A stretch of 49,771 bases of DNA, from the NCBI GenBank assembly GCA_020426925.1, contig JAGQPC010000229.1, positions 1-49,771 on the forward strand, given 5' to 3'. Positions 20,701 to 42,264 of this stretch are shown piece by piece (positions within the stretch are counted from its first letter, which is position 1; every line of letters starts with the position of its first letter). The notes beneath the pieces are model-generated. The model was not told the DNA's origin. It was given only the letters and a program-made list of their open reading frames with translations, and did not search any database. The DNA comes from Planctomycetales bacterium. GTDB taxonomy: Bacteria; Planctomycetota; Planctomycetia; Pirellulales; Pirellulaceae. A program made the position numbers and the translations under genes.

Positions 20701-20893
20701 GTTGGCCGTGTTCGATCCGGTCACCCGGCACGTTCATCGCTACGTTCGTGGCGAGTTCGTGCTCTATGCACCGCATGAACGAGACATCCCAACGGTTACA
20801 TCGTCGCTCAGCTGGTACGGCGGACACCGTGAACATCTTGGATTCGCATCCATCGTTCGCCCAGGGAACGAACGCCAAGGAGGCGAAGTATGA
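17792..20893 (+). CDS. dabA: DabA (DUF2309/UPF0753), catalytic subunit of a DAB-type inorganic carbon pump; 5' end uncertain
   Basis: Family-wide motifs are present: [34 protein letters not shown]...[10 protein letters not shown] (CxDxR), [47 protein letters not shown] and PMRLLFVIE. These match what I recall of the Bacillus YbcC / DabA family. The ORF-track TTG at 17693 lies inside the sigma54 promoter. No in-frame ATG precedes the conserved core, so the in-frame candidates are TTG 17792, GTG 17804 and TTG 17813. Confidence 0.9.
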
Positions 20894-23684: not shown

Positions 23685-23693
23685 AGGAACACC

Positions 23694-24455
23694 ATGCAAC
23701 ATTCTCGACAAGCACGTTGTGGCGACTTTTTGTTTCGTTGGCGGAGCTATTTGCCTATTCTGTTTCTGCCATTCTTCGCGTACAGCTTCCTGACGTTCTC
23801 GTACCTGTGGAACTCGCACACACTGCAGCACGTATGGGCCGCAGGTTGCGTGCTGGTAGCTCTCATTGGTCTGTTGGTTCGAGGCCTAACAGTCGGATTT
23901 GTTTCAGATGGAACCTCGGGCCGCAATACGCGGAAGCAACGAGCTGAAGAACTGAATACTACGGGGATGTATTCGATTTGCCGGAATCCTTTGTATTTAG
24001 GAAATCTGCTGATTTGGGTTGGAGTGTTTTCCTACACCCGAAACGTCTCAATTGTCGTCATTTTTGTCCTGACGTTCTGGCTTTACTACGAGCGAATCAT
24101 TGCCCGAGAGGAAGTCTTTCTATTGGGCAAGTTCAAACGCGAATACCGTGACTGGTGTCGCGAGACGCCTGTCTTTGTGCCAAATCCGTTCTTGTGGAGT
24201 GCGCCCGCGCGGAGGTGGTCAACTCGGATGGTGTTGCGCCGCGAGTACACATCAATACTGGCGATCGGATTGGCGTTCTTTGCCATGGATACGGCGGCGC
24301 ATTTTGGAGTTGAGAAAAAAATCTATGTCGATCTGAGTTGGACGTTGTTCGCGGTGTCGTGTGGTCTCGTGTACATCGTGCTGAGGTTTCTGAAACGACA
24401 CACGAGCGTTTTGAATGCCCCGAATGACTTGCCAGCCGACGCTATGAACGGCTGA
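23694..24455 (+). CDS. Isoprenylcysteine carboxyl methyltransferase (ICMT)/phospholipid methyltransferase-family membrane protein
   Basis: Polytopic protein with the family motif GMYSICRNPLYLGNLLIWVGV ... ERIIAREEVFLLGKFKREYRDW. It starts 9 nt after the upstream stop, with AAGGA ahead of the ATG. Confidence 0.7.
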   Translation: MQHSRQARCGDFLFRWRSYLPILFLPFFAYSFLTFSYLWNSHTLQHVWAAGCVLVALIGLLVRGLTVGFVSDGTSGRNTRKQRAEELNTTGMYSICRNPLYLGNLLIWVGVFSYTRNVSIVVIFVLTFWLYYERIIAREEVFLLGKFKREYRDWCRETPVFVPNPFLWSAPARRWSTRMVLRREYTSILAIGLAFFAMDTAAHFGVEKKIYVDLSWTLFAVSCGLVYIVLRFLKRHTSVLNAPNDLPADAMNG

Positions 24456-24506
24456 CATCTGGAATGGAGATCGCGCCCGAACCGCAATGTTCGGAAGGAA
24501 TATCAA

Positions 24507-26480
24507 ATGAACAAAGAACTTGAAACCGCAATACCACGCGGCGACGCCAGTGGATTCGTGACGTACCTGAAGCAAGATCTCGTGTCGGGACTGCTCGTGT
24601 TTTTGATTGCTTTGCCGCTGTGTCTTGGCATTTCGATCGCTAGCGGCTATCCGCCAATTGCAGGTATTTTCACTGCGATCATCGGGTCGATCCTAACGAC
24701 GTTTATCAGCAACAGCGAACTTACAATTAAAGGTCCAGCCGCCGGCCTGATCGTCATCGCAATCGGCTGCATCAACGATTTCGGTGGTCCTGAAAGTCAT
24801 GACGCTTATCGGGCCGCGTTGGCGGTTGGTGCGGCTGCAGCCGTCCTGCAGATTTTGTTCGGGATATTTCGCGCCGGAATACTCGGCGAGTTTTTTCCGA
24901 CTTCCGCTGTACACGGCATGCTTGCTGCGATCGGTGTCATCATCATGATTAAGCAGGTTCCGGTAGCCTTGGGCGTGACCGCAAAGGGTGAACCGCTGGA
25001 AATGCTGCGTGAGATTCCACATTATGTCATGGAGGCCAATCCGGCGATTGCTTGCGTCGGACTGGTCAGCATCGCGATCATGTTTTTGTGGCCCATGGTC
25101 GGAAAACGCGTTGCGCTGCTGAAGAAAATTCCCGCGCCGCTGGTAGTGCTGCTAGTCGCCGTGCCCCTAGGGTTCGCGTTCGATTTGCTGCATGAGCATT
25201 CCTACACGCTACAGGGGCACAAGTATCAACTAGGCGAGCAATATCTCGTTCGGATGCCTGACCGCATGTTTGGAATGTTCGATGACATTACGTTTCCGGC
25301 ACTCGGGACACTTGCTCAACCAAAGGCGTGGAAGTGGGTCTTGATGTTCTTCATCATCGGGAGTCTTGAATCGCTTCTCAGTGCGAAAGCCGTCGACCTG
25401 CTCGATCCGTGGAAGCGCAAGACCAGCATGGACCGCGATGTTCTTGCTGTCGGCGTTGCCAACTTGTGCGTTGCCAGTGTTGGTGGGCTGCCAATGATTT
25501 CGGAGATTGTCCGATCGAAGGCCAACATCGACAACGGAGCGAGAACTCGCTTCGCCGATATGTGGCATGGGATATTTCTGCTCGCCTGCGTCGCCTTGAT
25601 TCCAATGGTGCTTCACCAAATTCCGTTGGCGGCACTTGCCGCAATGCTTGTGTATACGGGTTATCGGCTCGCTCATCCGACCGAGTTTGTTCACGTCTAC
25701 CGGATCGGCAAGGAGCAGCTGGCAATATTTGTAACGACGCTTGTTGTTGTACTCGCGACGGACCTTTTAATTGGCGTGGCAGCAGGGATCATTCTAAAAA
25801 TGGTGATTCACGTTGCGAACGGCGTTCCTATCAAGTCGCTGTTCAAGCCATACATTGAGGTGCAGGAGGTTGACGCGACGACCAGTTTGATACTGGCGCG
25901 GGAATCGGCTGTCTTTAGCAATTGGATTCCCTTTCGCAGACAGATTGAACAGATTGGGCTCGTTCAAAAACGCAACCTGATCGTCGACGTTTCCAATACA
26001 AAACTCGTCGACCACAGCGTTATGGAAAAGTTCGAGGAAATGGAGCGAGACTTCGAACAAGAGGGATTACGGTTTGAAGTTCGAGGACTCGATTCGCTTC
26101 AGCCTCTTGCTAACGACGCCCACGCAGCCAGGAAGCGAGGGTTGGCCTCGATTCGCCGCCTGATCATTGTCGCCGACAAGGAACTGGAAGATTGGTTAGA
26201 ACGCGAGTTTGTGGCATGCGGTTCGTCGGGATTCACAGTGATGCCCTGTAGCGGGGCTGGGCGACGCGGGATACGAGACGGGCAAATCAACAAGACTCCT
26301 CAAATACGAATTGAAGTCGTCGTTCCATTCGACGTGTGTAATCGCATTCTTGATTTTCTGCGAAGAGACATACTGCCCGATCATAGAGTGACGGCATGTG
26401 TGGAAACTGTCGACGTTGTTCATATTGGCCATTTCACGCCCGAATTGTCGGATGTTGAAGTGGCCTCGGAGCACGTATGA
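24507..26480 (+). CDS. SulP-family anion (candidate bicarbonate) transporter with a STAS domain and an extra C-terminal PII-like domain
   Basis: SulP N-terminal signature [30 protein letters not shown] and about 10 or more TM segments. STAS region [13 protein letters not shown]...[22 protein letters not shown]. The last ~110 aa have a beta-alpha-beta / loop / beta-alpha-beta pattern that aligns to GlnB. Confidence 0.85.
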
Positions 26481-26726
26481 CAAACGATCCCGCGAACTGC
26501 ACACTAGCACCGTCGGTTGGCACCTATGTAACACAGCCGCAAAGCGAGTCAATATATCTGTAGTGCAAGAAAACTTCGCTATTGCAGCTTGAGACAGTGC
26601 GCTAGTCGTCGTCTCAAGATGGATACACACGTCTGTGGCTGGACTATTGACGACGGTATGCAAATGTACTCGGCAATGATTCCGAGCGAGAGCGGTTGCA
26701 GGCAGCCGGCCGGTAATAACTGAAAT

Positions 26727-27371
26727 TCATCCAATTCGGTCGGTGGCTATCCTGTATGCATCAGCGATCTCTTCTGGATCGTTGATCGTGACATTTAGAT
26801 CACGCAGCAAACCGTCTTGGAGTCCGTAAATCCAGCCATGCACCGCAAGAGTTTGAGCTCGTTCCCACGCTTCTTGAACCACCGTCGTATGACAAACGTT
26901 GAGGGCTTGCTCGACAACATTTAGCTCGCACAACCGGTCCAATCGCTCGTCATCGTCACCGATGATGCGGAGCACTCCATCATGCTTTTGCCGAACGTCT
27001 CGAATATGTCGCAGCCAGTTGTCGATCAGGCCCAGATGATGATTTTGGGTGGCAGCTTTGACGCCACCGCAACCGTAATGTCCGCACACAATGATGTGTT
27101 TGACCTTCAGAACGCACACTGCAAATTCAATGACGCTGAGACAATTGAAATCGGTATGAACTACGACGTTCGCGATATTGCGATGTACAAAAACCTCGCC
27201 AGGGATTAGGCCAACAATCTGATTGGCAGGTACTCGGCTGTCTGCGCAACCGATCCAAAGAACTTCAGGCGTCTGCTTTTCGGCGAGCTTCTTAAAAAAG
27301 TCCGGGTCTTCTTGGGTCATGGAGTCGGCCCAACTCCGGTTGTTTTCGATCAGTTGGGGTAAGAAGCGCAT
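26727..27371 (-). CDS. can: Beta-class carbonic anhydrase, E. coli Can-like
   Basis: Colinear with E. coli Can as I recall it: EDPDFFKKLAEKQTPEVLWIGCADSRVPAN (CxDxR), VFVHRNIANVVVHTDFNCLSV, HIIVCGHYGCGGV (HxxC) and LCELNVVEQ. Confidence 0.93.
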   Translation of the reverse strand: MRFLPQLIENNRSWADSMTQEDPDFFKKLAEKQTPEVLWIGCADSRVPANQIVGLIPGEVFVHRNIANVVVHTDFNCLSVIEFAVCVLKVKHIIVCGHYGCGGVKAATQNHHLGLIDNWLRHIRDVRQKHDGVLRIIGDDDERLDRLCELNVVEQALNVCHTTVVQEAWERAQTLAVHGWIYGLQDGLLRDLNVTINDPEEIADAYRIATDRIG

Positions 27372-27508: not shown

Positions 27509-29461
27509 CTATCTCCGCCGACGGGTCGCGCGATTCTTCACTGACTTTTCAGCTTGGACTGTGGCTTCTGCCCGATCGATTGCCCCGTCACGATTCGCGT
27601 CGAAATTGCGAAAAGCAAATTGACCAAAAGTTTTGGGGAGCTCTGATTCTACCAATCGACCGTTGTTGTCTTTGTCGAATCGTTTAAAAAAGCGGTCGAC
27701 CGTTTTCTTGACCAACCGCGATTCAGGAGTCTCAGCGGTCTCTGGCGGCTGAATTGTTTTCGGATCAACGGGCACCGAAATGCTGCAGTAAGTCAGCATC
27801 ATTTCGTCTTCCGACTGCTCGCCCCAGCGAACCGTTCGCGAAGGATCTGGGTTCGTCGGGTTACTCGCCGAATTGTCATAACGGGCTTCACACAGAATTC
27901 GCGTTTGAGCATCGAGCGCAATAGGTCGCTCCAATTGATAGGTGTGCTGCCAATTGTAGTCGTAATCGGGAACGTCCAGCAGAATCGAAGATTCCTTGTC
28001 GCGGCGAATTGTGCAGCGAAACGATTTCCCACGAAGATGCATGTGAGGCGATAGCGACAACAGCATCGCCTCCTTGGGGAACTTGCTTAGTGACGCTCCG
28101 ACTCGATGATTTGCCGCGTGTGCTGGAATGGCAAACGATCGGTTCTGTGCCAGCATTGTGAACACGCGCTCGGTTACAGCGTCTGGGTCCGCAAAGACAA
28201 TACCAATTCGCGTTACATCTGTTTGTGTTCGTCCTGTCGGTGTGTAGTGCAGTTGAAAAACCAATTTTGAACCGGCAGGAACGAAGTAAGCTTGGTGAGA
28301 CTTCAACCGCGTGACATCTTGCCCTGGGACATAGGCGGCGAGCCAGCTCATCGCTTTTTCGCCCCACTCGTCAGGCGTCACGACCGACACGATTGAATGA
28401 TGGACAACACCGCGGTTTCCGGGGACAACTTCCGCGGCCGCAATCCATTGATCTTCTTTAAATCCTGGATCAACGGTGAAGTACTGATACTCGATAATTC
28501 CTTCGGCGGGCACACGAAAAGGAACCTTCGACATTTCGAATACTGCGTCGGGCTCCTTTTCTAATCGCCAACCGTCCACGAACTTGCGAGGTGCAGGCAA
28601 ATCGGATTCATCACCATACGGAGCGTCAGCCTTCACCCAATCGTAAATCAGCTGTTTCTCTGATGGTGATAAACGACGAGCATTCAAGAACTTTCCATGT
28701 TGTGGATCGGCGCTCCACGGAGGCATGCGTCGATCCTTGACAACTTCGGCAATCATATCCGCCCATCCGACTAATTCGCTGTAGTCGTCCATTTGGAACG
28801 GACCGATGTCTCCGTCACGATGGCACTCGGCACAGTGTTTCTGAAACAACCGAGAAATCTGATTGCAGTATGTCACCTTATATTCGCTGCTTGGTTTCTT
28901 CACTCGGCCGATGATACATCCCACAGATTCTGTCGACGAATTTGAGACCGAATCACCGCTGAGCAGTTCTTCTACTGCAACTCGCAAATCGTGTTTCGTG
29001 GGAGCCGCGCGAACGTAGCCGACGCCGTACTGGTCATCGATTCGACCGTGGTAGCGCACAACTCGGTTTCCGTCCAGAACGAAGACTTCCGGCGTTCGCG
29101 TAGCCATGAGCTGATCGACGATTGCATTGTCATTATCTCGTAGAATCGAAAACTTGATTCCGAGTTCTTTTGCGTACTCTTGAATATCGGCCATTGAATC
29201 TTGCGAATTGGCGTTAACTCCGATGACGGCAACTTCTTTCGAAGAGTACTCGTCGGCCAATTGCTGAAGTCTGGGACCATAGAGTTTCGCCAAGGGGCAT
29301 TCCGTTCCCAGCACGGCAACCACGACGACTTTGGAATCAGCAAAGCTGGATAGCGCGCAGCTTCGACCATGCTGATCGTGAGCCTCAAATTCCGAGACCG
29401 GACTGCCGATGGGAGATACCGCTAGCGTGACCGCCGACAGCGCGTGCAATAAAAATGTCAT
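27509..29461 (-). CDS. Multidomain redox protein: redoxin/AhpC-TSA-like + c-type heme motif + copper type II monooxygenase (PHM/DBH)-like + two EF-hands
   Basis: Thioredoxin-fold region VVVVAVLGTECPLAKLY has a single Cys and no CxxC. Heme motif CAECHRDGD. Cu-ligand-like series VVHHSIV, FQLHYTP, PHMHLRG, DEMMLTY. EF loops DKDNNGRLVESE and DANRDGAIDRAE. The ATG at 29461 (MTFLLHALSAVTLAVSP) is preferred to 29500. Confidence 0.8.
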   Translation of the reverse strand: MTFLLHALSAVTLAVSPIGSPVSEFEAHDQHGRSCALSSFADSKVVVVAVLGTECPLAKLYGPRLQQLADEYSSKEVAVIGVNANSQDSMADIQEYAKELGIKFSILRDNDNAIVDQLMATRTPEVFVLDGNRVVRYHGRIDDQYGVGYVRAAPTKHDLRVAVEELLSGDSVSNSSTESVGCIIGRVKKPSSEYKVTYCNQISRLFQKHCAECHRDGDIGPFQMDDYSELVGWADMIAEVVKDRRMPPWSADPQHGKFLNARRLSPSEKQLIYDWVKADAPYGDESDLPAPRKFVDGWRLEKEPDAVFEMSKVPFRVPAEGIIEYQYFTVDPGFKEDQWIAAAEVVPGNRGVVHHSIVSVVTPDEWGEKAMSWLAAYVPGQDVTRLKSHQAYFVPAGSKLVFQLHYTPTGRTQTDVTRIGIVFADPDAVTERVFTMLAQNRSFAIPAHAANHRVGASLSKFPKEAMLLSLSPHMHLRGKSFRCTIRRDKESSILLDVPDYDYNWQHTYQLERPIALDAQTRILCEARYDNSASNPTNPDPSRTVRWGEQSEDEMMLTYCSISVPVDPKTIQPPETAETPESRLVKKTVDRFFKRFDKDNNGRLVESELPKTFGQFAFRNFDANRDGAIDRAEATVQAEKSVKNRATRRRR

Positions 29462-29633
29462 CTGTTCCTTCGTTCTGTTCCGCCTCAGGCCGTGCCTCAA
29501 ATCGACCTGATCGCCAAGGAGGGCACGTTCGTATTGTGCCCAAAGTGATCGACCATGTCACCTCGAAATTGGAACTTTTACTCACAATCGATGAGAATGC
29601 CGATTGTGCCGCCGATTTAGATCGCGATTTGAA

Positions 29634-30083
29634 TCACTTTGTCGTGAATTGAATGTTCTCGAAACCGACTTGCATCGCCGAATCGTAAACGTCAATTACA
29701 GGTCCCAATTTGACCGAATCGTCAGGGTCGACGATCACCGGGATATCCGTTCGCACCATCGCGACCGCGGCTAAGCGTTGACGAACCTGATCCAGGTTAC
29801 CCAGCGGTTCATCATTCACTCGCCATTGGAGTGCGTCGTCGCCGTCGTTTGCGGACAAAAGTCGAATGATGACTTGTTCTACATCGATGTGCTCCAAAGA
29901 CACTTCCGTGTTGTCGCCACTTTCGCTTGACACACTTAGTCGACTGGGCAACAGCAACTCTACTGACTGGAAGCTCGCAGTCCAAACGAAAAATACCAAC
30001 AGCAAAAACACAACATCGATCATGGGCGTCATAGCGACGTCGCGCACACCTTCTTGTCGATTATGAACAGACGGTATCTTCAT
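29634..30083 (-). CDS. exbD: ExbD/TolR-family biopolymer transport protein
   Basis: Signature MTPMIDVVFLLLVFFV with the conserved TM Asp. Size (149 aa) and periplasmic domain are typical of ExbD. Confidence 0.85.
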   Translation of the reverse strand: MKIPSVHNRQEGVRDVAMTPMIDVVFLLLVFFVWTASFQSVELLLPSRLSVSSESGDNTEVSLEHIDVEQVIIRLLSANDGDDALQWRVNDEPLGNLDQVRQRLAAVAMVRTDIPVIVDPDDSVKLGPVIDVYDSAMQVGFENIQFTTK

Positions 30084-30127: not shown

Positions 30128-33100
30128 CTACCAGCGTGTTAACCAAGCAATTACAAGCGTACCGAGAACAATTACCCAACCGAAGAGACTGGGTTGCAAG
30201 AAAAGCCACCAAGCAATACCGCACACGATCGCACCGGTGTAGATCCAAAGATCTGCCTCCGTAACAGAAATAGGCTTGAATCGACTTTGGATCGCAAACA
30301 CACCGACAAATACGGCAATCATTGCGGATGCCAGGCGAAGCAATACGGGCGTTTGGTCGACTTGTACAAACTTCACGCGTACTTCACGGATCGGCTCGGT
30401 TCGCACAGATCGAAACGCCGTGTTGAAGTTTGAATAGGGATCCGAAAGCGAGTAGGTTGTTTCCACGTACTCTGGATTCGAATCCAATTTCCGGTCGTTC
30501 AGATAGAATTCGACATTGTCAACGTCAGCCGTGATACGAAATTGCCACGTTGTCTGCTCCGGATGCAGCATTTGATCGGATTCACTTACCGACGTTGATA
30601 ACTGCACGAACTTGGGGAACTCGACGATTTGAAATGCTGCTCGCGAGACATCAAACTGGGCCGTTGTCCAAACGACACGCAGTCGCTGTTCCACTGACGA
30701 TCGGGCAAACGGCAAAGTAACATAGCCGTCACTTTCTGATACGGGAACAACGGCTCCGTTTATCGAGATTTGCTTGACCACACAACCGTCTGGTTTGGTA
30801 AAAGCAATGCCCCCGTCTCCTTGAACGACAATTGAAACATCTGATATGACTTGAGGCTGCGGTCGGTCGCAGACGGTGTGGCGAACGTCAATTACTCGCG
30901 ACGAACCGTCATCGACATCTGTGTTTGATTTCACTAGCGATGCGTCGGGTGACGAAACGAGATACACGTCATAGTCGCTCACGTCGAAACCAAAGCTGGT
31001 CGTGGTACTGTCGAGCGACTCCATGCCAATCGGCAACCATTCGTCCTCGGTCTCTGAAGAGTTCATTGCCACGAAAAATCGGCTGACATCACCATTAGTG
31101 ACGCCGATTTGAGCGGTCAAGCGTTCATCAGTTGCAGCTATCTCTCCGCTAAGGTCAATTGTGTCGCCTTTGCGGAACGGAACTGCCGGCCGCAACACAA
31201 CGATTTGCTGATTTGGAAATGGAGACGGCATCAACGCCACGGTAATAGCGTTAACCGTGATCGGGCGTTCCCAACTAGCCGGCAAAAGGAGTCGGATCGA
31301 GTCACACGAGTCGCTCGCACCGCTGCTGCGAACGTTATTGATGCGGCATTTCAAGTTGTAACTATACGCATCGCCCGCTGGCGCAAAAAGTAACAATGTC
31401 TCCAAATCGACGCTGCTGTCTGTCCTTTCAACATTCAGTGTCATCATGGCATTGTCCGCAGTTTTGCTCCACACTGATTGTCGGAACGCTGAGGTAGTAT
31501 CACGAGAAATACCTGCGACGTCCTGTGTTGCGGCTGTCGCTGTTTCGTACCCCGAGGCAGCGACATTCACAACCTGGATTCCCGGCTTTCGATAGATCGA
31601 TAGTTGTTCACCTACCTTGAGCATGTTCGGAATCGCAACCGATCCGCCCGAATGCCGCAGTTGCCCGCGTATGCGAAGCCTAGCCTGTCCAGTTCGCCTT
31701 TCCGGCAGAAAAACCGCGACCGAGTTACTGTCAGCTCGCGACCAGTTGAGCGAATCATTACCGGTTTCTGCCAACATTGAAACTTCTTTCACAATAACGT
31801 CGTCGGGAACCGGCAAGCGAACCTGATAAAGAGACTCTGCACTCAAATCCAGAGTCGCGGTGATGATCAGATCCGATTGAAGCTCTCCAACGAGCAGCGA
31901 TGCTTGGAGAGATGCCTCAGTTTGAAACGCCCTAGATTCGAATGCGAAGACACAGCTGTAGTTCGCGGCATCGTTAATTGTATAGGTGTACGTTGGAGGG
32001 GGCGTGGCGGTTTCCCAGACTTCCGAAAACAAGGAAGATGGAATCGACGAGATGCCTACGGTTCGCCAAGGAGTCATGGCGCGAGTGTTATTGCTCGATG
32101 CAGCAATGATGCTCGACACGACTTCCGCGCCCGTCACATGGACTCTAGGGATGCGGATTTTTCCGACGCTGGTAACTCCTGCAATGTCAAAATGAACATG
32201 AATCAACGCTTCCGTTTCAGATAAGATGTGAGGAGCAAAAGAGAGACGCGTGCGATTTCCATCGAGTTGATCCACACCGAGCGGTTGGTCACCGCTCTCG
32301 TTAGGGACTAGTCGAGAATCGACGACGACATCAAGCGGTCCGAATTTTCCCGCCATCGACTGCAGCAGGAGCCTCAACTCGTACCGAACGCTGTCTTTGT
32401 CAACTTTAAGCCAACCAATCTGTGTCGCTGTTACTTTGCCGTCCAGGCCTTTGCTGTCGTCGGCAGTCCACGTTAGATCTAACGTTTCAATTGGACCCAG
32501 AAACGCTGTGACTTCACGCTGCTGAGTATCGCGCTCAACTCTGCCAATGGAACGAACGCGAATTGCATTTGTATCAAGGAACGACGACAGCTGAACCGTT
32601 GAATCGGAGACCTTTACGATAGGAATCGATATTGAGTTGTCGGCTCCATTGGAAGAAACAGGCACCACATACGTCAGCTCCAATTCGTAGTGATTCCTGT
32701 CTTCAAACGACAGATTCAACGTCTGTGTGTCGACATCTTGTTGTAAGACAATTGGTTTCCGATCGAGCCTCGCCTCCAATTGCAAAAAACGCATAGCTTC
32801 CGGCGGAATGGGCAATCGGACCAGCACATCGTCATTTAGCGTTTCAATTTCATAGATGCCTGTGATTTGAACAGTGTCTTCTGCGGATACTTGGGCTAGC
32901 GTCGCTCGGTAATTCACTGATCGCAATAACCATTTTGCGGCGAGTCCTTTCGCTCGGGCGTCGTATTCGAGCAGGCTATCGTGGAAGGTTCGCGACAAGT
33001 AGACGTTGTCATTTTCTTTGTCTGGATCACCGTTTTCGTCGATGGGCACGTAAACGCTTTCCAGGCGGTTTGGTGCTGAGGTATATGGTTGATCTTGTGC

Positions 33101-36100
33101 GTCTGCATAGTTCGGCCAGCTAGAAACGCAGACAAGTCCAAACAGACCGGCAATGATCGGTCCGGCCGCCTTTACTGCAGCTGATTCATAAACCGTTCGC
33201 TCGGAACGCATGCGAAGCCAAAGCGCACGTCGAGACCAATGAAGCATTGCGCCCGCAACTGTCCCCCAAAAAACCATAGTTCCTGCTGCCGCTAGATTGC
33301 TAGGCAAAAGTAGGCAGGCAGCCCCAATAATCACAATCGCAGCGAAGGTCCAGTGCGCACCCAAACGGGAAACGATCCACGCGCAGCCTGTCGCAAGCAG
33401 GAAGCAGACAACGGAGACTCTAGTAACGAAATTGCGGTCGACGTAAGTGAGTGTTGTTTTTTCGTGTCCGCCTGGCACAATCGTTAGCTGCCACCCGCCT
33501 ACGACTAGCGACAAACTGTCAGGGGGACCGACTTGCCATCGAGGCAAATCATCTTGCAAGCGCCAACTCGAAACCGTATCTAGGCTGTCCAACTGCTGGC
33601 TAATGCGAGCGTCGATTGATTCGGCAGAAAATAGGCTATCGCGGACAAGCACTACGTTGGGTACTTCCGTCCATTCAAACGGCACGTCAAGCATGCCGAG
33701 TGCTTCTGCAGTGGTAACGTACAGGTGCGTTCGCGTGGCGATTATGCCTAAGTCAAGTTGTGAAAAAAAGTGTTCGGCGTTGTCCGTTTCATTGGCCGCG
33801 TTGGTGTTTACCTTGGCGTCGGGGGAGATGCCGCGATGTAGGAGACGCTTGGAATCAAGCATTGGGACGATCAACGTTGCTGAGCGGGTGATGCGGTTTG
33901 CGTTGTCGAATGCTTGGATAGTCTGATCCCACGTCATCGTATCATCATCGGCTGCTTTCATGATTTCCGTGACCAGCAGGCGTGCGGACTGCAGAGCATC
34001 GGATCTGGTGTTCCCTTGAAACAGCTGAATCCAGCTTTGGTCAGAAAAAAAATCAAACGGTTTGGAACCTGGAACTCGCGCAAACACACCAAAAAAACGG
34101 TGCATTACGTCGTGAGTCGTAAGGCGAGTGTTCCAATGCTGTGGCAGAGTCGGCAGCGCCGCAGGCGGCGTCCATACCTTCCACTGATGTTGAAGGACAG
34201 GCGATTCCAGGCCAATGCGCGGGCATCTGACGTTTTGTCCAAATCGCTTAGATACAACCGACTCAGTTTGCGGCTCGGTCATTTCAATCCGCACAACTGG
34301 ATAGCGATTGGCAGATGGCAAAGGAATCTGAAACGTGCCAGGCTCGTTGCTCGCCGATGTCACTCGTTGCTCGTCAACATGAATTTCGTTGACGATATAC
34401 TCATTGGGAACGACAACTGGCAAAACGTTTTCTCCATGGTTTTCGACGAACATGGAGATGACATGACGATGTTGGCCCGTTGGATCAACGATTGTCGTAG
34501 GCTGCAACAGCCATACTGTGGAATGCTGAATCGCGGCATGGCTGACCGCGCGGACTCGCAGGAGCGGTCGGTTCGCCATCGACGCTGGTTGAGAAACGCG
34601 GTATCGCAATCGAGGGCTAACCACCATGTCGTCGCTTGCTGCGATATCGGGCTTTTGGTCGACTCCAGCAAATTGCTGGACGTCAATCTGTGTGTCCAAG
34701 GACGACGTCACTGTCACTTGCCCAGATTGCGTCTGTGCGCCCGGGACGAAAATTCCGTAGATCGTAAACTCATCGTCAAACGGGACAATCCTTCTCCCGA
34801 TCAGAGTAAACGGTTGATCCATGGATCTGGGCATTCGAATCACTCGCGAGTTGTTACTGACCGTTTCGACAATTGGCAGCTCGTCCGAATCAAGTGTCCA
34901 GCGGTAAGGAACGTCGCGACCCTGCAAATGCACTTCCAACGAACGCACCGCGCCGGACATTGGAGTTACACGGACTCGCACGCTTTCATCGGAACTTACA
35001 TTTGATACGTGATACAGAAGTTGCACTTCTGCGCCAAAAGTTGCGTCGCTGTTTGTTAATGTGAACGTAACACCGGACGCATCATCGTCGAGTGCGATCA
35101 GCGCATCTGTTTCGAGCAATTCCATAGAACGCCGCAACAAAGCAGGAAGCGAATCATACGTCATCCATCGACCATTTTCGCCGTCAGTCCAAGTAATCCG
35201 ATTTACATCTGAATTCCGCACTGCCACGAGGCGGCTACCAACATCGTGAGCATCGAAACGTAACGCCTCAAGAGCTTCGACTGGGTACGTTTCGTTGCTG
35301 GCCAAGCGTCGAGTCGCGGTAATGACCATCTGCGTAATTCGAGATTTGTCGATTGGTCGGCGAAGCGACACTTGCAGATGCGTCGGATCCGCCGACTTTT
35401 TTTGCTCCCATCGTTCGACGAAGTTAAGCGTTTGACCGTCAACCGATCGCAATTTCACACTCTCTACGTTCCAGCCCGGCCGCACCGTCGACGAGATCTC
35501 AAACAAATCGCCTTGCAAGACGTTGATGTTTGCGATCGATTGTGCCTTTGCAATGGAATCGGAAATCTCGATCAACGTTGCTACGTCGAATCGTGCTCGA
35601 CTGTTAACGTGGCCAAGCGATACCAGAACAGATCCTTGCTCTTCGGCATACTCGAATTTGAAGGACTGGTCCGAGGCATCGGAATCGTCCACTTGCTGAC
35701 ATCGGTTTAATTCCAGTGCGTGGATGACGATTGTGCCAGACAGATTTAGGTACGCAGCTTCCTGCATCCACTCGCATTGTGGACTTGAAACTCGTGGCAA
35801 GGACTGCGGCTTTTCGATGTCGATGTCAGCGAGCCCATCAATTTGGATGGTTTTTCTTGTGTGGGACGAAGCAGCGTCTCGATTTAGTGCAGGAACGTCG
35901 ATAGGCAAATCAACGGTAATCGTCTGGCTGCCATCATGGTGAACCTCCAGGATTTCCCAATCCGCCACTTTGTCGTTTACATGCACATTCAGCGGTTGCA
36001 GTCCTGAGGACAATTGGAATTCAACCGCCCTTGTGGAATCCGGGACGTCCTCGATGTGGATTGTCGACCGTATTTCCAGTCCTACGTCTGAAGCACCGTA

Positions 36101-36859
36101 TACGACTTCCTGCGAGTAGTACGGTTTGGGTCTGTTCCCGGCTTCTTCGCGAACGACATCAATCGTCAACTCACCGGCACCAGAAACGCGAACATTCCAG
36201 ACTCGCACGTTGTTCGATAATTCGCTTGAGATCGTGCCGCGATTCGTCCGCAGTAATACGTTTGTCGGAGCGAAAATTGTGAATTCGTGAAGCAGTGATT
36301 CACACAATTGAATCGACAGTTTCCTGTGAGTGTCTCTGTCGGCTTGCAGCGACCACTGAAACTCAAACGTGTCCGACTGTGGAACTAACAGAACGATTTC
36401 GCCTGTGTTGCATAGTCCAAGTTGCGGACTTTGACCGTTGACACGCCATTGCGGATTAACGATTGGAATGTTGAATTCGCCAAAATTGACTTCGGTGGGA
36501 ACTTCAGCGGTAGAAGTAATTCTGAAAACTCCGCTACCATTTACAAACCCATCGTCGTCAAGCGTCGCAGTATAAGTGGCCTTGTCGATTGAAACACTGC
36601 GAATAACGGTTGTTGGCAGACCATTCTTCAAACCATCTACGATGTTTTCAAACTGCTTCCTGTCCATTGGCAAAAGAAACAGATTGCCTGCTGCCGAAAT
36701 GATCTTTTCGAGCGGAGCATACACTCGCACGAAAGAATGCTCGCCGGCGTCCGATGGTTGCGACTGTTCCTGGCCGTTCAAATGCGAGAACAGCAGCATC
36801 GCGACCAGAAGACTGATCGACAGTTTACGAAAGTCGCGAGATGGCCAGTGCGTAATCAT
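30128..36859 (-). CDS. Giant envelope protein (2243 aa) made of two tandem paralogous modules separated by a four-helix membrane segment; family unknown
   Basis: Uninterrupted ORF of about 6.7 kb. The ATG at 36859 overlaps the upstream stop (ATGA at 36856-36859) and gives the signal peptide MITHWPSRDFRKLSISLLVAMLLFSHLNG. Hydrophobic clusters lie mid-protein (about 33180-33425) and at the C-terminus (about 30128-30330). Confidence 0.85.
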   Translation of the reverse strand: MITHWPSRDFRKLSISLLVAMLLFSHLNGQEQSQPSDAGEHSFVRVYAPLEKIISAAGNLFLLPMDRKQFENIVDGLKNGLPTTVIRSVSIDKATYTATLDDDGFVNGSGVFRITSTAEVPTEVNFGEFNIPIVNPQWRVNGQSPQLGLCNTGEIVLLVPQSDTFEFQWSLQADRDTHRKLSIQLCESLLHEFTIFAPTNVLLRTNRGTISSELSNNVRVWNVRVSGAGELTIDVVREEAGNRPKPYYSQEVVYGASDVGLEIRSTIHIEDVPDSTRAVEFQLSSGLQPLNVHVNDKVADWEILEVHHDGSQTITVDLPIDVPALNRDAASSHTRKTIQIDGLADIDIEKPQSLPRVSSPQCEWMQEAAYLNLSGTIVIHALELNRCQQVDDSDASDQSFKFEYAEEQGSVLVSLGHVNSRARFDVATLIEISDSIAKAQSIANINVLQGDLFEISSTVRPGWNVESVKLRSVDGQTLNFVERWEQKKSADPTHLQVSLRRPIDKSRITQMVITATRRLASNETYPVEALEALRFDAHDVGSRLVAVRNSDVNRITWTDGENGRWMTYDSLPALLRRSMELLETDALIALDDDASGVTFTLTNSDATFGAEVQLLYHVSNVSSDESVRVRVTPMSGAVRSLEVHLQGRDVPYRWTLDSDELPIVETVSNNSRVIRMPRSMDQPFTLIGRRIVPFDDEFTIYGIFVPGAQTQSGQVTVTSSLDTQIDVQQFAGVDQKPDIAASDDMVVSPRLRYRVSQPASMANRPLLRVRAVSHAAIQHSTVWLLQPTTIVDPTGQHRHVISMFVENHGENVLPVVVPNEYIVNEIHVDEQRVTSASNEPGTFQIPLPSANRYPVVRIEMTEPQTESVVSKRFGQNVRCPRIGLESPVLQHQWKVWTPPAALPTLPQHWNTRLTTHDVMHRFFGVFARVPGSKPFDFFSDQSWIQLFQGNTRSDALQSARLLVTEIMKAADDDTMTWDQTIQAFDNANRITRSATLIVPMLDSKRLLHRGISPDAKVNTNAANETDNAEHFFSQLDLGIIATRTHLYVTTAEALGMLDVPFEWTEVPNVVLVRDSLFSAESIDARISQQLDSLDTVSSWRLQDDLPRWQVGPPDSLSLVVGGWQLTIVPGGHEKTTLTYVDRNFVTRVSVVCFLLATGCAWIVSRLGAHWTFAAIVIIGAACLLLPSNLAAAGTMVFWGTVAGAMLHWSRRALWLRMRSERTVYESAAVKAAGPIIAGLFGLVCVSSWPNYADAQDQPYTSAPNRLESVYVPIDENGDPDKENDNVYLSRTFHDSLLEYDARAKGLAAKWLLRSVNYRATLAQVSAEDTVQITGIYEIETLNDDVLVRLPIPPEAMRFLQLEARLDRKPIVLQQDVDTQTLNLSFEDRNHYELELTYVVPVSSNGADNSISIPIVKVSDSTVQLSSFLDTNAIRVRSIGRVERDTQQREVTAFLGPIETLDLTWTADDSKGLDGKVTATQIGWLKVDKDSVRYELRLLLQSMAGKFGPLDVVVDSRLVPNESGDQPLGVDQLDGNRTRLSFAPHILSETEALIHVHFDIAGVTSVGKIRIPRVHVTGAEVVSSIIAASSNNTRAMTPWRTVGISSIPSSLFSEVWETATPPPTYTYTINDAANYSCVFAFESRAFQTEASLQASLLVGELQSDLIITATLDLSAESLYQVRLPVPDDVIVKEVSMLAETGNDSLNWSRADSNSVAVFLPERRTGQARLRIRGQLRHSGGSVAIPNMLKVGEQLSIYRKPGIQVVNVAASGYETATAATQDVAGISRDTTSAFRQSVWSKTADNAMMTLNVERTDSSVDLETLLLFAPAGDAYSYNLKCRINNVRSSGASDSCDSIRLLLPASWERPITVNAITVALMPSPFPNQQIVVLRPAVPFRKGDTIDLSGEIAATDERLTAQIGVTNGDVSRFFVAMNSSETEDEWLPIGMESLDSTTTSFGFDVSDYDVYLVSSPDASLVKSNTDVDDGSSRVIDVRHTVCDRPQPQVISDVSIVVQGDGGIAFTKPDGCVVKQISINGAVVPVSESDGYVTLPFARSSVEQRLRVVWTTAQFDVSRAAFQIVEFPKFVQLSTSVSESDQMLHPEQTTWQFRITADVDNVEFYLNDRKLDSNPEYVETTYSLSDPYSNFNTAFRSVRTEPIREVRVKFVQVDQTPVLLRLASAMIAVFVGVFAIQSRFKPISVTEADLWIYTGAIVCGIAWWLFLQPSLFGWVIVLGTLVIAWLTRW

Positions 36860-39800
36860 CCGTTCGAGTCCGCTCCGACAACTTCTCTGTCTTGATGCGG
36901 CATCGAGGCGGTGGCTGCCTGCGAGGTTCCCTCGGACCATTGATGCTGCAGAAAGCTACTCGAGTCGTGACGCTTCTGCGCTGGAATTTGGAGCAACTGG
37001 CGACTGATGCTCAATCGCCGAATGAACAGCGCTGTCCACTGTCCTACCAAAGCCAAACAAACACCAATAACCGACGCTTGAGCCATCAAGACGGCTGGAC
37101 CAGGAAAGAGTAGTCCGAAAGTCACCAGCGTCAAAGCTGCCAGCAGCAATACGATCGGCTGGCGCAATTCCCCAAGATAAATGAGCATCAAACCGAACGC
37201 TAAAGCGCAGCCTGATGCGACGGCGACTAGTGCTCTTCGGCTGGCGGACCGAATCGAAGTCGTGCGGAGTGGAACTAGTGAGCGAAAAACATATTCGTTC
37301 CCGCCAGGCGTTGAACGCAAATTCGTTGTGCCAACCCAATTCTCCAAGACGGCTTGAACGTTAGGATTGCGGCTAAAGAACCAACCACGCCAAGTCCACG
37401 GCTGCGCTGGAACTAAGCGATCATCCGAAGTGATCAAGTGTTCGGATGGCGGCAGGGTGAGTTGCCAAATCCACCTTCCACACTCGCTTAGGTTGGTCAG
37501 AAACGGCAGCGTCGCGGCAATGTTTCCGGCCGCCGGTCGTTCGTTGTAGTCCAATTCTACCTCTACAAGAAAGGATCGGCGACTATCCTCTTTTGCCACG
37601 TTGTCGCCAAGCGGAATGCTCAATGTGTTTGCGTTGAGATATCGGTTCGGCTCTTCGACTTCGTTATTATTGACCCAAACGCGAACGGCCGCCGGCGACG
37701 GATTGCCTGGAACATCAATCTGTACTTGTGGACGTCCGGAATGAAGCTGAAACGCAATTTGATCACGACGTCGACTATTCGATAGAGTCGTGTGAACCCA
37801 GAATCGATCCACTCTGGTTTTTTCGCTGGTGTCACCCGCAATCGAATCATCGGCCGTGGCCACCACGCTGGCAGACTTTGGTTGGCCAATCGAGCTCGCG
37901 GCGATTGCGTTTAATCCGATTGTGCCTTCCGCCGCCGCGCCCATCGTTTCAATTGGAAAGTTGGCTTTTGCAAGCTGATTGATTTTCCATTCGGAGTCAG
38001 ATGTAGGCCATTCTACTCGAACACCGTTTGGATTGACGACGATCTGATTCGACACAGTACCTGGCTTTTCAATGCGGCTCGTCAAAAGCGGAATGTCGAT
38101 TGTTTCAACTTCACCTACTGCGAAGTCTTCGTCGTCGAGGGTGTAGGAGACATCGACCACCGACGAACCAATCATTGCTTCCGGCAATTGAATATTGGCG
38201 ATCGCATTGGAACCAGTTACATCTATCGAACGCAGCCACTCAATCGCTGGAAACGATACGCCGTTGATTGTCGTTGAAATTCGACTAGCGCGAGATGTGT
38301 CGCGAATCAGGTCGTACACTTTTTGCGGCAGCTCAAATCGCAACCTTTCTAATCGTTCATACTGAATTTCAAACGCAAATCGCTGTCTGATTTGGACGGT
38401 GTCGTCGGAAAGCTGGACCAAATTCGTAACGCTCAAATGGACCCGTTGCTCGCGCACCTCGACATTGAGTAGGAATTGTCTGGCTTGTCGTTCTGATTGC
38501 ATGCGGAAGCAGCGGACAGGTTGTGTGGACGTTATTGCTGGTAGCTCTTCACGCAAATCCGTTGGAATAGCAACCTGCAAGAACCCTCGCGGTTGATGCT
38601 CTGGAAAATCAAGCATCACATTGTCTGCGGCACCAATCAGCAAGACAGGCTGCGACGTCGAATCAGCGTCTGCGACCGGAAACGACATTTCAGCAGTTGG
38701 TGGTTCGATTAGTTTGTGTGACCGCACTCGCAGCTCAAAATCATCGCTTACAGGAGACTGAAAGAAGATTGTTAGCGTGGAGGTTGCCGCATCGTATTGG
38801 TCAACGTACTGGATTCCGTCCGGAAACGTGACGTAGTCGTACTCCCAATCGTCGAGTTTGACCGTCAGTTGATTTAGACTGCCTCCTCGGATTTGGTACT
38901 GGAACACGCTACGGAGGTAAATTCGATTTGTCTCAACGGACAACACTTGCAGCGGAGTGACCGCCACTCTTGTCGTTTCTAAACTGGCCCAAACGTTGAT
39001 CGAACACGGCTGCCGCGCGTACTTGAATACAGCGAGCAATTCCGGTGAAGTGTCTAGCAATACGTCGTTTACCCGCTGCACGCCTGGACCAGTCTTCCAG
39101 CTCACGCGCGCGTCCAACTTGTTGAATAACCGGACCTGGCCGAACTGACGAACGGTCGTTTGCGATTGCGAATCGACGACTTCCACTGCAGCAATGTTTG
39201 TTTGAATATCCGGAGCTGCGCTTTCTGGCGAGCCGATTCGCAGCTCAATTCGCAAATCGACGGTTTGTTCCGTCGCAGGCGTCGTCATGTTGATTTCGTA
39301 TTGCCGAAAGGCCGACTCCGCGGAAGTCGAGCGAGCTCGAGCCTTATAATTCGACCTGTCCAGCAACGTTATTTCTGCGTTGGCCGGAACGCGAACGTCG
39401 AACGAGCCGATTTCTCGGTTGCTGGACAATTGCAGCTTGACGTTGCTACTGACAATTCCCACTTGTTCGAATGTTGCGTCGATGTCCGCTTCGACGTCGA
39501 GTCTTGCAGGAACTTGTGGCTTCGCTGTATTGGTGTCACCCGTGCGCCAACTGATTTGATAACGTTCTTGAAGCCCAACACATTTGACAAACAGCGAGCC
39601 TTCTTCTTGCCGTTCATCACTAATCCGGCCACCAATGACTTCAGCAATAATTGACTGGCCCTCAATGGTCGCCTCGAATGATGATTGTGTCGCCTTGGGG
39701 AGTGTCAAAGAGAGTTCGGAAGATTCTGCCAGCTGCGTCGTTGGTGCAGACAGGTCAAGCCGAATTGTGATGGACGTCGCATCTGAACCACGGTACCACG

Positions 39801-40254
39801 CAATAAAGCCATCGGTTCGATCGCGCTGAAAGATGCATTCGCCATTTCCTTCGAATTCAGGCGACTCGATCAAGGCAGCTTCATGTAGTCCAAGGGGAAT
39901 GCGCAGCCAATCGTTTTCGTTCTTGTGTTTTTCTTCCGCCCTCCGGATTTGCAGAACGATTACTGCGCGCACTTGTGATTGCTCAGAATGTAGGCCGCCC
40001 GTCAAAGCCAAATTAGCCAACGTGGCGCGATCAGGCTGCATGCGATCGCTACGAGCAATGCGGTTCCTGAGGTACTCGTTGATTTCGTCGTACTGCAGCC
40101 CGTTTAACACGGGGATGTACTGTCCGCTGGCGTTCTTCGCATACAGAATCGACAGAGGATTCTCTTGAACCTTAGGATTTGCTGCATCGTCCTGCTGCGC
40201 AAGAGCACTGGCGCTTAGTAAGAGCAACGCGAGTATCGCGGCAATCTTAGACAT
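36856..40254 (-). CDS. Large envelope protein (1132 aa): signal peptide, ectodomain, C-terminal 3-TM anchor; paralogous to the modules of the downstream giant gene
   Basis: Signal peptide MSKIAAILALLLLSASALAQQ. Three C-terminal hydrophobic helices (ALVAVASGCALAFGLMLIY, IVLLLAALTLVTFGLLF, VIGVCLALVGQWTALFI) followed by a charged tail. Confidence 0.85.
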   Translation of the reverse strand: MSKIAAILALLLLSASALAQQDDAANPKVQENPLSILYAKNASGQYIPVLNGLQYDEINEYLRNRIARSDRMQPDRATLANLALTGGLHSEQSQVRAVIVLQIRRAEEKHKNENDWLRIPLGLHEAALIESPEFEGNGECIFQRDRTDGFIAWYRGSDATSITIRLDLSAPTTQLAESSELSLTLPKATQSSFEATIEGQSIIAEVIGGRISDERQEEGSLFVKCVGLQERYQISWRTGDTNTAKPQVPARLDVEADIDATFEQVGIVSSNVKLQLSSNREIGSFDVRVPANAEITLLDRSNYKARARSTSAESAFRQYEINMTTPATEQTVDLRIELRIGSPESAAPDIQTNIAAVEVVDSQSQTTVRQFGQVRLFNKLDARVSWKTGPGVQRVNDVLLDTSPELLAVFKYARQPCSINVWASLETTRVAVTPLQVLSVETNRIYLRSVFQYQIRGGSLNQLTVKLDDWEYDYVTFPDGIQYVDQYDAATSTLTIFFQSPVSDDFELRVRSHKLIEPPTAEMSFPVADADSTSQPVLLIGAADNVMLDFPEHQPRGFLQVAIPTDLREELPAITSTQPVRCFRMQSERQARQFLLNVEVREQRVHLSVTNLVQLSDDTVQIRQRFAFEIQYERLERLRFELPQKVYDLIRDTSRASRISTTINGVSFPAIEWLRSIDVTGSNAIANIQLPEAMIGSSVVDVSYTLDDEDFAVGEVETIDIPLLTSRIEKPGTVSNQIVVNPNGVRVEWPTSDSEWKINQLAKANFPIETMGAAAEGTIGLNAIAASSIGQPKSASVVATADDSIAGDTSEKTRVDRFWVHTTLSNSRRRDQIAFQLHSGRPQVQIDVPGNPSPAAVRVWVNNNEVEEPNRYLNANTLSIPLGDNVAKEDSRRSFLVEVELDYNERPAAGNIAATLPFLTNLSECGRWIWQLTLPPSEHLITSDDRLVPAQPWTWRGWFFSRNPNVQAVLENWVGTTNLRSTPGGNEYVFRSLVPLRTTSIRSASRRALVAVASGCALAFGLMLIYLGELRQPIVLLLAALTLVTFGLLFPGPAVLMAQASVIGVCLALVGQWTALFIRRLSISRQLLQIPAQKRHDSSSFLQHQWSEGTSQAATASMPHQDREVVGADSNG

Positions 40255-40485: not shown

Positions 40486-41274
40486 TCAGATTCGCAAGAC
40501 TTTAGCAAGTTCAGCTTGAAGCTCCGGCGTTGCACCCACCACAATTCTTGGCCGCTCTAGATCGACAGCGTGTCCGTTCAAGTCGGTAACCACGCCTCCG
40601 GATTCTTCGATAATTAGCAGGCCAGCCGCCACGTCCCACGTTTTGACGCTGGTTGCCCAGTACGCATCGAGTCTTCCGGCAGCAACAAAGCACATATTCA
40701 ACGCTGCCGATCCAAGCCGCCGCAGCGCCTGGCACCGGACTAGGACTTCAACAAATCGCCGTATTTCCGCAGAATCACGCGCGACCTTCGCCGGAAAGCT
40801 GGCTGCAACGAGCGCCTGGTCTAGCCGGCGAACAGGACTGGTCTTTAACTTCTGTCCATTTTGAAACGCACCGCTCCCTCGAACTGCGGAGTACACAATA
40901 TCGCGGTTCGGATCGTAAATGACGCCCGCGGCGATTTGTCCATCTTGCCGCTGCAGCCCGATCGATACGCAGTAGTTTTCCAACCCGTGAACGTAGTTTG
41001 TAGTTCCGTCGAGTGGGTCCACGATCCAGCGGTAGTCCGAGTTAAAGCTCCTTGAAACGTTTGAGTCTTCCTCGCCAAGGAAGGCGAAATCTGGGAATCG
41101 TGCAGAAAGACACTCAAATATCAACTGCTGCGATGCAACATCCGCTTCCGTCACCAGATCGGCTGGAGCCTTTTCCCGCGGATGTATTTTCCCCCGCATT
41201 GTGAGTAGCAGGGCTCCTGCCTGTCGGGCAGCAGTTTCTGCAGATTCTACCGCGTCTGTTAGGTCGGTGTTCAT
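40486..41274 (-). CDS. Inositol monophosphatase family protein (SuhB/ImpA-like)
   Basis: Motifs FLGEE, WIVDPLDGTTNYVHG and WDVAAGLLIIEESGG. Confidence 0.9.
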   Translation of the reverse strand: MNTDLTDAVESAETAARQAGALLLTMRGKIHPREKAPADLVTEADVASQQLIFECLSARFPDFAFLGEEDSNVSRSFNSDYRWIVDPLDGTTNYVHGLENYCVSIGLQRQDGQIAAGVIYDPNRDIVYSAVRGSGAFQNGQKLKTSPVRRLDQALVAASFPAKVARDSAEIRRFVEVLVRCQALRRLGSAALNMCFVAAGRLDAYWATSVKTWDVAAGLLIIEESGGVVTDLNGHAVDLERPRIVVGATPELQAELAKVLRI

Positions 41275-41531: not shown

Positions 41532-41568
41532 ATTGGTTGCCGCAGCACCACTGTGAAGGTTATTGGGC

Positions 41569-42264
41569 ATGGAGCCAACAGTTTCTTGGCGGATCAGCGG
41601 CACGCAGGCAGTTAGCCAAGGCGGACGACTCCACTGTGAGGTCGATGTCGCCAAGCCAAGCCAGGGTTTGGAGAACGTTCAGCTTGGTGATTCTCGTTTC
41701 TCGAATTGGTCACTGCTGCGAACGAAGCTGCCAGGAGGCATAGGTACCGAACCAGTCGCCGAACACTATGTTCGAGGCAATGACCTTATCGTGACTTACA
41801 AGCAGACGCCGAACCGTACAGTCAGACCTCAATTGTGTTGGCGGGCTGGCGCCGCTAGTACCGAATTGATCGTATCTGTCCAGACAAGCCTGCTGGAAAG
41901 TTGCCCGGCAATATGTGTGGGTTCCAGGCTGGTCGATGGCGAGGCCTACTCCCTTGACGGTGAGTCTTGTCAGCAGATTACGAATGCTTGCGAAATCCCT
42001 ACGTCCGCGATTCTCTTTCGACCTAACGGAGGCAGCGTCAGCTATCTGGAACTAGTCCATCCAAGTGACGCGAATTTGGTTCGCATTGAGTTTTCTGCCG
42101 ACCAAGTGGAGACGCAGTTCGAAATCTTTAACGACCGGTTAGAAAAAGGAGTGATCCGTCGCGGTCGCTTGCGGTCGCACTTTATCGACCGTGCCAGTGA
42201 CGTTGATTCGGCTATTGAGTTGATGCGAGAGTTCCAGGCATCACCCGCTCCGCTTACGACGTAG
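41569..42264 (+). CDS. Hypothetical protein (about 231 aa)
   Basis: ORF 41563..42264. The ATG at 41569 follows GAAGG by 9 nt. No motif recognised. Confidence 0.55.
   Translation: MEPTVSWRISGTQAVSQGGRLHCEVDVAKPSQGLENVQLGDSRFSNWSLLRTKLPGGIGTEPVAEHYVRGNDLIVTYKQTPNRTVRPQLCWRAGAASTELIVSVQTSLLESCPAICVGSRLVDGEAYSLDGESCQQITNACEIPTSAILFRPNGGSVSYLELVHPSDANLVRIEFSADQVETQFEIFNDRLEKGVIRRGRLRSHFIDRASDVDSAIELMREFQASPAPLTT

Follow-up and report, generated by a model that had tools for sequence, protein, structure and literature searches.

What kind of cell-envelope system is specified by two very large, overlapping genes that match no curated protein family is the question raised by the stretch of DNA considered here, the 49,771 nucleotides of contig JAGQPC010000229.1 (GenBank assembly GCA_020426925.1, forward strand; hereafter the window) from a Planctomycetales bacterium of the Pirellulaceae. 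The envelope of planctomycetes is unusual in that the periplasm is enlarged, inner membranes are invaginated, crateriform structures occur and macromolecules are taken up, by molecular players that are for the most part unknown (PMC12673574). The gene pair, termed A and BC, encodes three modules that profile comparison identifies as true, very old paralogues, module A standing alone and modules B and C being fused; together these may form an equimolar complex anchored in the cytoplasmic membrane. The pair and its junction are as follows:

36856..40254, minus strand: gene A (module A), from the open reading frame and its translation, 1132 amino acids (aa)
30128..36859, minus strand: gene BC (modules B and C fused), open reading frame of 2243 aa, its start at the ATGA backed by homologous junctions
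36856..36859, minus strand: ATGA stop/start overlap of gene A and gene BC, read from the sequence

The minus-strand junction reads AACGGATGATTACG, i.e. AAC GGA TGA / ATG ATT ACG, with the TGA of A and the ATG of BC sharing the ATGA; the positions of both reading frames and their overlap are thereby as a first-pass annotation of the window had given them. A longer BC reading frame extending to 36940 is unlikely to be the gene, because BC of relatives begins at the overlap. Translational coupling, also proposed in that annotation, is borne out beyond the window, a 4-bp ATGA or GTGA overlap being retained at 72 of 85 junctions of related loci. The fusion of B to C is likewise general (14/14 BC relatives), and the mid-protein cluster of helices is also present in BC relatives of 2100–2900 aa. 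In a single case all three modules are joined, in a 3410-aa A+B+C protein from a Pirellulales metagenome-assembled genome (P0088, MFO0870948.1), where A occupies residues 13–1117, B begins at 1152 and C spans 2249–3405, the cytoplasmic tail of A continuing into the signal-like helix of B; this fusion may be natural, or may reflect a one-base assembly error or indel at the ATGA overlap.

The paralogy of the modules had originally been judged by eye from architecture and short local matches. Such matches are not significant alone: Smith–Waterman scores between modules gave z of 0.15–1.5 against shuffles, and BLASTP returned only scattered matches with E >0.09. Pairwise comparison being blank, profiles were used instead, the A profile being built from seven A-type proteins (from the window and related loci L001, L002 and L004–L007) and the B and C profiles from 14 BC-type proteins recovered by two protein searches and divided at the mid-protein basic loop. 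Alignment of these profiles with hhalign gave E 1.1e-39 over 813 collinear columns for A versus B, E 7.9e-38 over 779 for A versus C and E 5.5e-35 over 830 for B versus C, with reversed or column-shuffled control alignments at E 0.012–1; inter-module identity in the profile alignments is ∼11–12%. The relationship is also visible in single proteins, where hidden Markov models (HMMs) of B and C each match the other's module, and among the A-type open reading frames of fetched loci, of which 36/67 are matched by the B HMM and 40/67 by the C HMM (E<1e-5; medians of 82 and 93 bits, respectively). Because the profile alignments have clean controls and are accompanied by these cross-matches, modules A, B and C are true, very old paralogues, and the claim stands on grounds other than those on which it was first made, two AlphaFold models of like plan and with a common spectrum of Foldseek matches (below) adding to them.

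The opposing explanation, that unrelated large beta-rich membrane proteins resemble one another through chance or composition and give the three-module pattern in this way, can point to the pairwise BLASTP and Smith–Waterman scores, which are indistinguishable from those of shuffles; it is refuted by profile E-values of 1e-35 to 1e-39 over ∼800 collinear columns where controls reach E ≥0.012, by the HMM cross-matches on reading frames of related loci and by the agreeing predicted folds, and is given next to no credence. A short h-x-[VL]-Y-[AV]-[PK] element noted in the first-pass annotation corresponds to h-x-V-Y-V-P within an N-terminal region conserved across the three families (RVxVP...YLP...F in B; VLVPID..G....YLPE.F in C; YL.D..G.L.PV...E.F in A); the region holds up in A, B and C, although the register chosen by eye in A is ∼5 residues off that of hhalign.

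Each module follows the same plan, from signal-type helix through a long beta-rich region to a cluster of three hydrophobic helices, with the parts placed in the window as follows:

40198..40254, minus strand: signal sequence of module A, residues 1–19, MSKIAAILALLLLSASALA followed by QQ; hydropathy peak and model helix 2–19
37240..40197, minus strand: predicted periplasmic region of module A, residues 20–1005; model secondary structure, internal repeat and conservation profile
37015..37239, minus strand: membrane anchor of module A, three closely spaced helices, residues 1006–1080; hydropathy, model and conservation
36859..37014, minus strand: C-terminal tail of module A, residues 1081–1132, basic then Ser/Thr-rich, disordered; predicted local distance difference test score (pLDDT) <50 at 1084–1132
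36773..36859, minus strand: signal sequence of module B, residues 1–29, RKLSISLLVAMLLFSHLNG; sequence, and hhalign match to the hydrophobic leader of module C
33437..36772, minus strand: predicted periplasmic region of module B, residues 30–1141; AlphaFold model of B and collinear hhalign alignment with A and C
33221..33436, minus strand: three-helix membrane anchor of module B, residues 1142–1213; hydropathy and model helices 1113–1136, 1139–1154 and 1158–1191 (+29 offset)
33182..33220, minus strand: basic loop between B and C, residues 1214–1226, RALWLRMRSERTV; sequence
33098..33181, minus strand: internal signal-like helix opening module C, residues 1227–1254, ending NYADA followed by QDQ; hydropathy and sequence
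30347..33097, minus strand: predicted periplasmic beta-rich region of module C, residues 1255–2171; hhalign alignment with A (E 7.9e-38) and B (E 5.5e-35)
30131..30346, minus strand: membrane anchor of module C, residues 2172–2243, three hydrophobic segments with TRW at the end; hydropathy and sequence

Hydropathy places a signal-type helix at residues 1–19 and a helix cluster at 1009–1078 in A; in BC it gives an N-terminal hydrophobic signal, a cluster at 1145–1213, the basic loop SRRALWLRMRSER, a helix at 1227–1245 and a final cluster at 2172–2241. Together with the AlphaFold models of A and B, these profiles uphold the initial description of each module as a signal-type helix, some 900–1100 beta-rich residues and three transmembrane helices followed by basic residues. 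The anchor of module A carries near-invariant residues at R1006, G1021, Y1026, R1031, P1033, P1051, Q1059 and G1064.

The helix counts (3, then 3+1, then 3) are just those required for all three beta regions to lie on the same, exported side; by this predicted topology the beta chains would stand in the periplasm, with their anchors in the cytoplasmic membrane. Three helices following a periplasmic domain would put the basic B–C loop inside the cell, and the tail of module A is predicted to be cytoplasmic from its helix count and the RR after its third helix. Cleavage of the module A signal would probably follow ALA, judging from an A-x-A pattern. Since A-x-A-like sites also follow the internal helix in many BC relatives (e.g. 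NSAAG/QE, ASAQ/AP and AVA/TAD), B and C may be separated by signal peptidase at this position, a suggestion drawn from residue patterns.

The AlphaFold model of A, built with 62 aligned relatives, has a mean pLDDT of 83.3, with 573 residues at ≥90 and a predicted template-modelling score (pTM) of 0.49; that of B, covering residues 30–1226 with 16 sequences, has a pLDDT of 65.7 and a pTM of 0.40, with the same plan as in A. In the A model a strand–strand–helix tip (36–72, within residues 34–76) at the N-terminus leads into unbroken beta strands from 77 to 1005, followed by helices at 1006–1026, 1033–1049 and 1051–1086 and a disordered tail. Self-comparison of the A profile detects an internal repeat (255–757 versus 433–961, E 3e-8) and, with secondary off-diagonal profile alignments, resolves each module into ∼5 tandem units of 180–200 residues, so described for the module A ectodomain as the tip, ∼5 beta-sandwich units of 180–200 aa and a conserved juxtamembrane domain at 935–1005. 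The beta-sandwich chain of module B ends at ∼residue 905. Within the A family the juxtamembrane domain is the most conserved part, at 1.99 bits per column, ahead of the N-terminal tip at 1.88 and the helices at 1.86; the units between score 1.3–1.75. These three peaks are the sites at which contacts between paralogues would be expected.

Foldseek searches of the PDB with the A and B models gave a common spectrum, comprising ribophorin I/Ost1, integrin alpha, the N-domain of M1 aminopeptidases and LTA4H, mu-homology domains, PIGT and macroglobulins, such that the two ectodomain models agree both in plan and in matches. Ribophorin I/Ost1 chains were matched at E 5e-9 to 1e-6 with probability 1.0 and template-modelling scores (TM-scores) of 0.12–0.32, and integrin alpha chains at E 1e-10 to 1e-6 with TM-scores of ∼0.1. 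The models thus portray large beta-sandwiches strung into a chain that is tethered by a membrane anchor, a plan that appears most like that of Ost1-type accessory subunits, to which homology is unsupported. Domains of Ost1 may themselves resemble the LTA4H N-domain, a likeness on which no conclusion here depends.

The pair is far from confined to the window. The A profile was run exhaustively with HMMER against 1.84 billion representatives of clusters (50% identity), which brought up A relatives in 1481 clusters at E ≤0.001, of which 483 had E ≤1e-30, the best 150 being almost all of 1050–1250 aa, and those looked up carry only the annotation ‘hypothetical protein’; a word-indexed protein search had returned just one A relative and three BC relatives, the large family being revealed by the exhaustive and profile searches. 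Loci were collected from species-representative genomes with a degenerate DNA pattern derived from the juxtamembrane motif W-Q-[LV]-x-x-P-x-x-[EQ]-H, yielding at least 120 loci, of which, among those listed, 94 have family matches and 26 do not. The latter all come from other phyla and are chance matches, their number being close to the expected ∼20. The 94 matching loci are labelled Pirellulales, Pirellulaceae, Thermoguttaceae, Planctomycetaceae/Planctomycetales, Planctomycetia or Planctomycetota, with the exceptions ‘bacterium’ and ‘Ca. Nealsonbacteria’; the contig behind the last label (L079, JABMRB010001437.1) is probably mis-binned, because its guanine-plus-cytosine content is 64.7% and its planctomycete-type A gene, at 1360 bits, is a typical family member. 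Wherever the DNA reaches far enough in the listed loci with family matches, gene A has a BC-type gene after it on the same strand, and A–BC is a widespread gene pair of Planctomycetia rather than a rare one.

The initial view that the family is an unknown one agrees with the searches made here, in which no curated family or solved structure matched by sequence. Scans of A and BC against Pfam and NCBIfam gave no match, and no Pfam family was matched by 14 BC relatives or by 42 A relatives (the latter at E ≤1); a PADLOC search and a profile search of all PDB sequences returned nothing, and in the literature on giant genes, crateriform structures, ribophorin in planctomycetes and subtomogram work no paper describing the A/BC pair was found. 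DUF5693 appeared below threshold in 7/42 members (best E 0.0034); these matches, of ∼10 bits where the cut-off is 29, map solely to the helix region and are dismissed as compositional. Planctomycete ‘giant genes’ are those of >5 kb in the definition of Reva and Tummler (2008), as relayed in PMC12673574; BC, a 6.7-kb gene for a large envelope-type protein, fits that size, ‘giant gene’ so defined denoting a size class and not a family.

Among structurally comparable proteins, the integrin alpha legs (thigh, calf and transmembrane helix; 8t2v_A) are alike in forming a long beta-sandwich chain that ends in a membrane anchor, the alpha subunit being half of a heteromeric ectodomain stalk. Homology to integrins is very unlikely, since these are eukaryotic adhesion receptors, and A and BC contain no FG-GAP Pfam match, no beta-propeller head and no RGD. 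BatD-type aerotolerance proteins and other bacterial envelope proteins with Ig-like repeats consist of an exported beta-sandwich chain with a C-terminal anchor in the cytoplasmic membrane. These share the general plan, whereas the A, B and C modules are much larger and comprise three paralogues; the BatD Pfam profile has no match in A, BC or 56 relatives. A cluster of genes for a MoxR AAA+ ATPase, a DUF58 protein and a TgpA-like transglutaminase membrane protein is present on the minus strand of the window (7054–11773), 19 kb off and separate from A–BC, and no MoxR/DUF58 linkage to the pair is seen in the inspected loci. The module plan, the collinear profile homology and the order of A then BC with a 4-bp overlap, by which the A/B/C family is recognised, are all found here. 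The fold class is a familiar one, and the system falls under no known kind, having three coupled paralogues, a membrane-threaded fusion and conservation across Planctomycetia.

How, then, might the modules work together? Each is predicted to consist of a signal-type helix, a small conserved tip, ∼5 beta-sandwich units, a conserved juxtamembrane domain and three membrane helices bundled like a hairpin. The third helix of B would bring the BC chain back to the cytoplasm, from which the fourth, signal-like helix would re-export module C, and ATGA coupling together with the B–C fusion would yield A, B and C at 1:1:1. An obligate partnership at this stoichiometry is suggested by the B–C fusions and the one A–B–C fusion, by near-universal coupling and by strict co-occurrence. 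The three could then assemble side by side in the periplasm as a hetero-oligomeric tower, joined at the helices and the conserved domains next to the membrane, and possibly also at the distal tips; the conservation peaks, the shared tip motif and the near-invariant helix residues are the grounds on which such clamping of a hetero-oligomer, at the membrane and less certainly at the tips, is proposed. Such a tower may support the enlarged periplasm of planctomycetes structurally, as its scaffold or spacer, or may offer a platform for docking there. We regard this reading, an equimolar A–B–C complex anchored in the cytoplasmic membrane with one of these periplasmic roles, as tentative and a little short of even, with doubt attaching mostly to function and less to architecture: paralogy, module plan, predicted fold, conservation, gene-pair linkage and coupling are observed or well predicted, and the topology, the formation of a hetero-oligomer and, above all, the scaffold function are inferred. 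That the modules make up a lineage-defining, periplasm-spanning tower of Planctomycetia, with 15 ribophorin-I-like units, which underlies the enlarged periplasm, the spacing of membrane and envelope or the base of the crateriform structures, and whose B–C polyprotein is cut by signal peptidase at the internal helix, is quite unlikely.

Several observations weigh against the proposed complex. The low pTM values (0.49 for A, 0.40 for B) mean that domain arrangement, overall chain shape and length are not fixed by the models. Foldseek TM-scores are 0.05–0.32 overall, the matches being to generic beta-sandwich chains that carry little functional information. Module B has a specific, mostly helical insert of ∼215 residues (BC ∼906–1121; window 33497–34144; pLDDT 32–50) between its last beta unit and the juxtamembrane strands, which is absent from module A and varies in length among relatives. 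Three arginines stand just before the first anchor helix of A, on its supposed periplasmic side, an unusual placement under the positive-inside rule. The sole frequent neighbour of the pair is a SuhB-like phosphatase gene, no conserved neighbour suggesting a structural role, and the distribution is established, among the loci listed, within Pirellulales and Planctomycetales-type lineages.

A fairly unlikely alternative to the equimolar scaffold is a ribophorin-like accessory platform, in which a membrane enzyme or translocon encoded elsewhere would have exported polypeptides or glycans presented to it, or held for it, by the modules, in the manner of Ost1 or PIGT. Ribophorin I/Ost1 (PDB 6s7o_E, 6ezn_A) is the best or second-best Foldseek family for both the A and B models, with PIGT also matched by B, and its plan of signal peptide, ∼200-residue tandem beta-sandwiches on the non-cytoplasmic side and C-terminal membrane anchor appears to be shared; the greatest conservation, in the juxtamembrane and helix regions, would also fit docking to a membrane partner. 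The resemblance is nevertheless generic, because TM-scores are low (0.12–0.32) and integrin legs and aminopeptidase N-domains score alike. Ost1 has two domains and one helix against ∼5 units and three helices per module, and differs further in that A, B and C are three paralogues in a coupled gene pair; Ribophorin_I (PF04597) has no match in A or BC (E ≤0.1) or in 42 A relatives (E ≤1), and no STT3-type oligosaccharyltransferase, PglB-like or transamidase gene adjoins the pair in the inspected loci, adjacency in the window and loci L001–L007 being what was surveyed for STT3. A decidedly improbable role is that of a periplasmic device for binding or capturing macromolecules, offering lectin-like or holdase surfaces to polysaccharides or proteins entering the periplasm. 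The units do resemble aminopeptidase N-domains, mu-homology and macroglobulin-type domains, and import of macromolecules into an enlarged periplasm has been reported for planctomycetes, through players that are unknown (PMC12673574). Against such a role, no carbohydrate- or other ligand-binding Pfam domain was found, conservation is rather even along the chain and not focused on a pocket, and there are no conserved glycoside hydrolase or transporter neighbours; A and BC also have no C.EQ thioester motif of the macroglobulin and complement type and no A2M Pfam match, and the A model matches A2ML1 and C5 in Foldseek with a probability of just 0.14–0.16.

A further rival arises from the gene immediately downstream of the pair:

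29634..30083, minus strand: ExbD/TolR-family gene, Pfam ExbD, E 2e-21, 76.8 bits (cut-off 25.4), 44 bp downstream of BC

Its position after BC on the same strand could indicate an energised Tol/TonB-like envelope system in which an ExbD-family protein drives the modules. No ExbD homologue stands beside the A–BC pair in other related loci, an acetyltransferase gene taking that place in L003–L005, and no ExbB/TolQ or TonB gene was found adjacent to the pair in the window, rendering such a system highly improbable; the ExbD gene is rejected as a member of the A–BC system because this neighbourhood is not conserved. In L003–L005 the genes downstream of BC encode a GNAT acetyltransferase and a PlsC-type acyltransferase, joined in L004 and L005 by a Metallophos_2 phosphoesterase, an order that may be the conserved local gene order of a sub-lineage. 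Beyond the ExbD gene in the window (27509–29500, minus strand) lies an unusual fusion, a 663-aa protein with an AhpC/TSA-redoxin domain, weak cytochrome c-type and copper-monooxygenase-like C-terminal signals and EF-hand motifs, for which no counterpart was found beside A–BC in other related loci.

On the upstream side, the frequent neighbour mentioned above directly precedes gene A:

40486..41274, minus strand: SuhB-like gene of the inositol-monophosphatase family, Pfam Inositol_P, E 4.8e-70

Of the 51 related loci with at least 1.3 kb of upstream DNA, 31 have a SuhB-like gene upstream in the same orientation, across deeply diverged planctomycetes, and its product may be a co-transcribed or functionally linked partner and part of the unit. 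Divergent from it on the plus strand is a 233-aa open reading frame (41563–42264) with no Pfam, NCBIfam or PADLOC match, homologues of which occur near A–BC in 20 related loci. These recurrent upstream neighbours could reflect either an operon or inherited gene order.

Elsewhere in the window, positions 17693–27371 carry an inorganic-carbon cluster, in which DabA (E 8e-234) precedes two DabB-like genes (Proton_antipo_M); the other members code for a PEMT-like methyltransferase, a SulP-family permease with a fused P-II domain and a beta-carbonic anhydrase. On the minus strand at 3079–6960 lies a gene for a 1293-aa PSCyt1/PSCyt2/PSD1 protein; this domain combination is typical of planctomycetes and supports the lineage assigned to the window.

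The present value of the A–BC pair is that of a well-defined target rather than an explained mechanism. The three modules represent an ancient triplication whose copies are now recognisable only through profiles and predicted structure, and in which one fusion would thread the membrane by means of a fourth helix. The A–BC pair amounts to ∼3,400 residues of predicted membrane-anchored periplasmic protein for which no curated family, name or paper was found; because it is widespread and tightly coupled in stoichiometry, and has gone without any of these, it offers a concrete, genetically tractable candidate for a lineage-specific structure of the planctomycete envelope.

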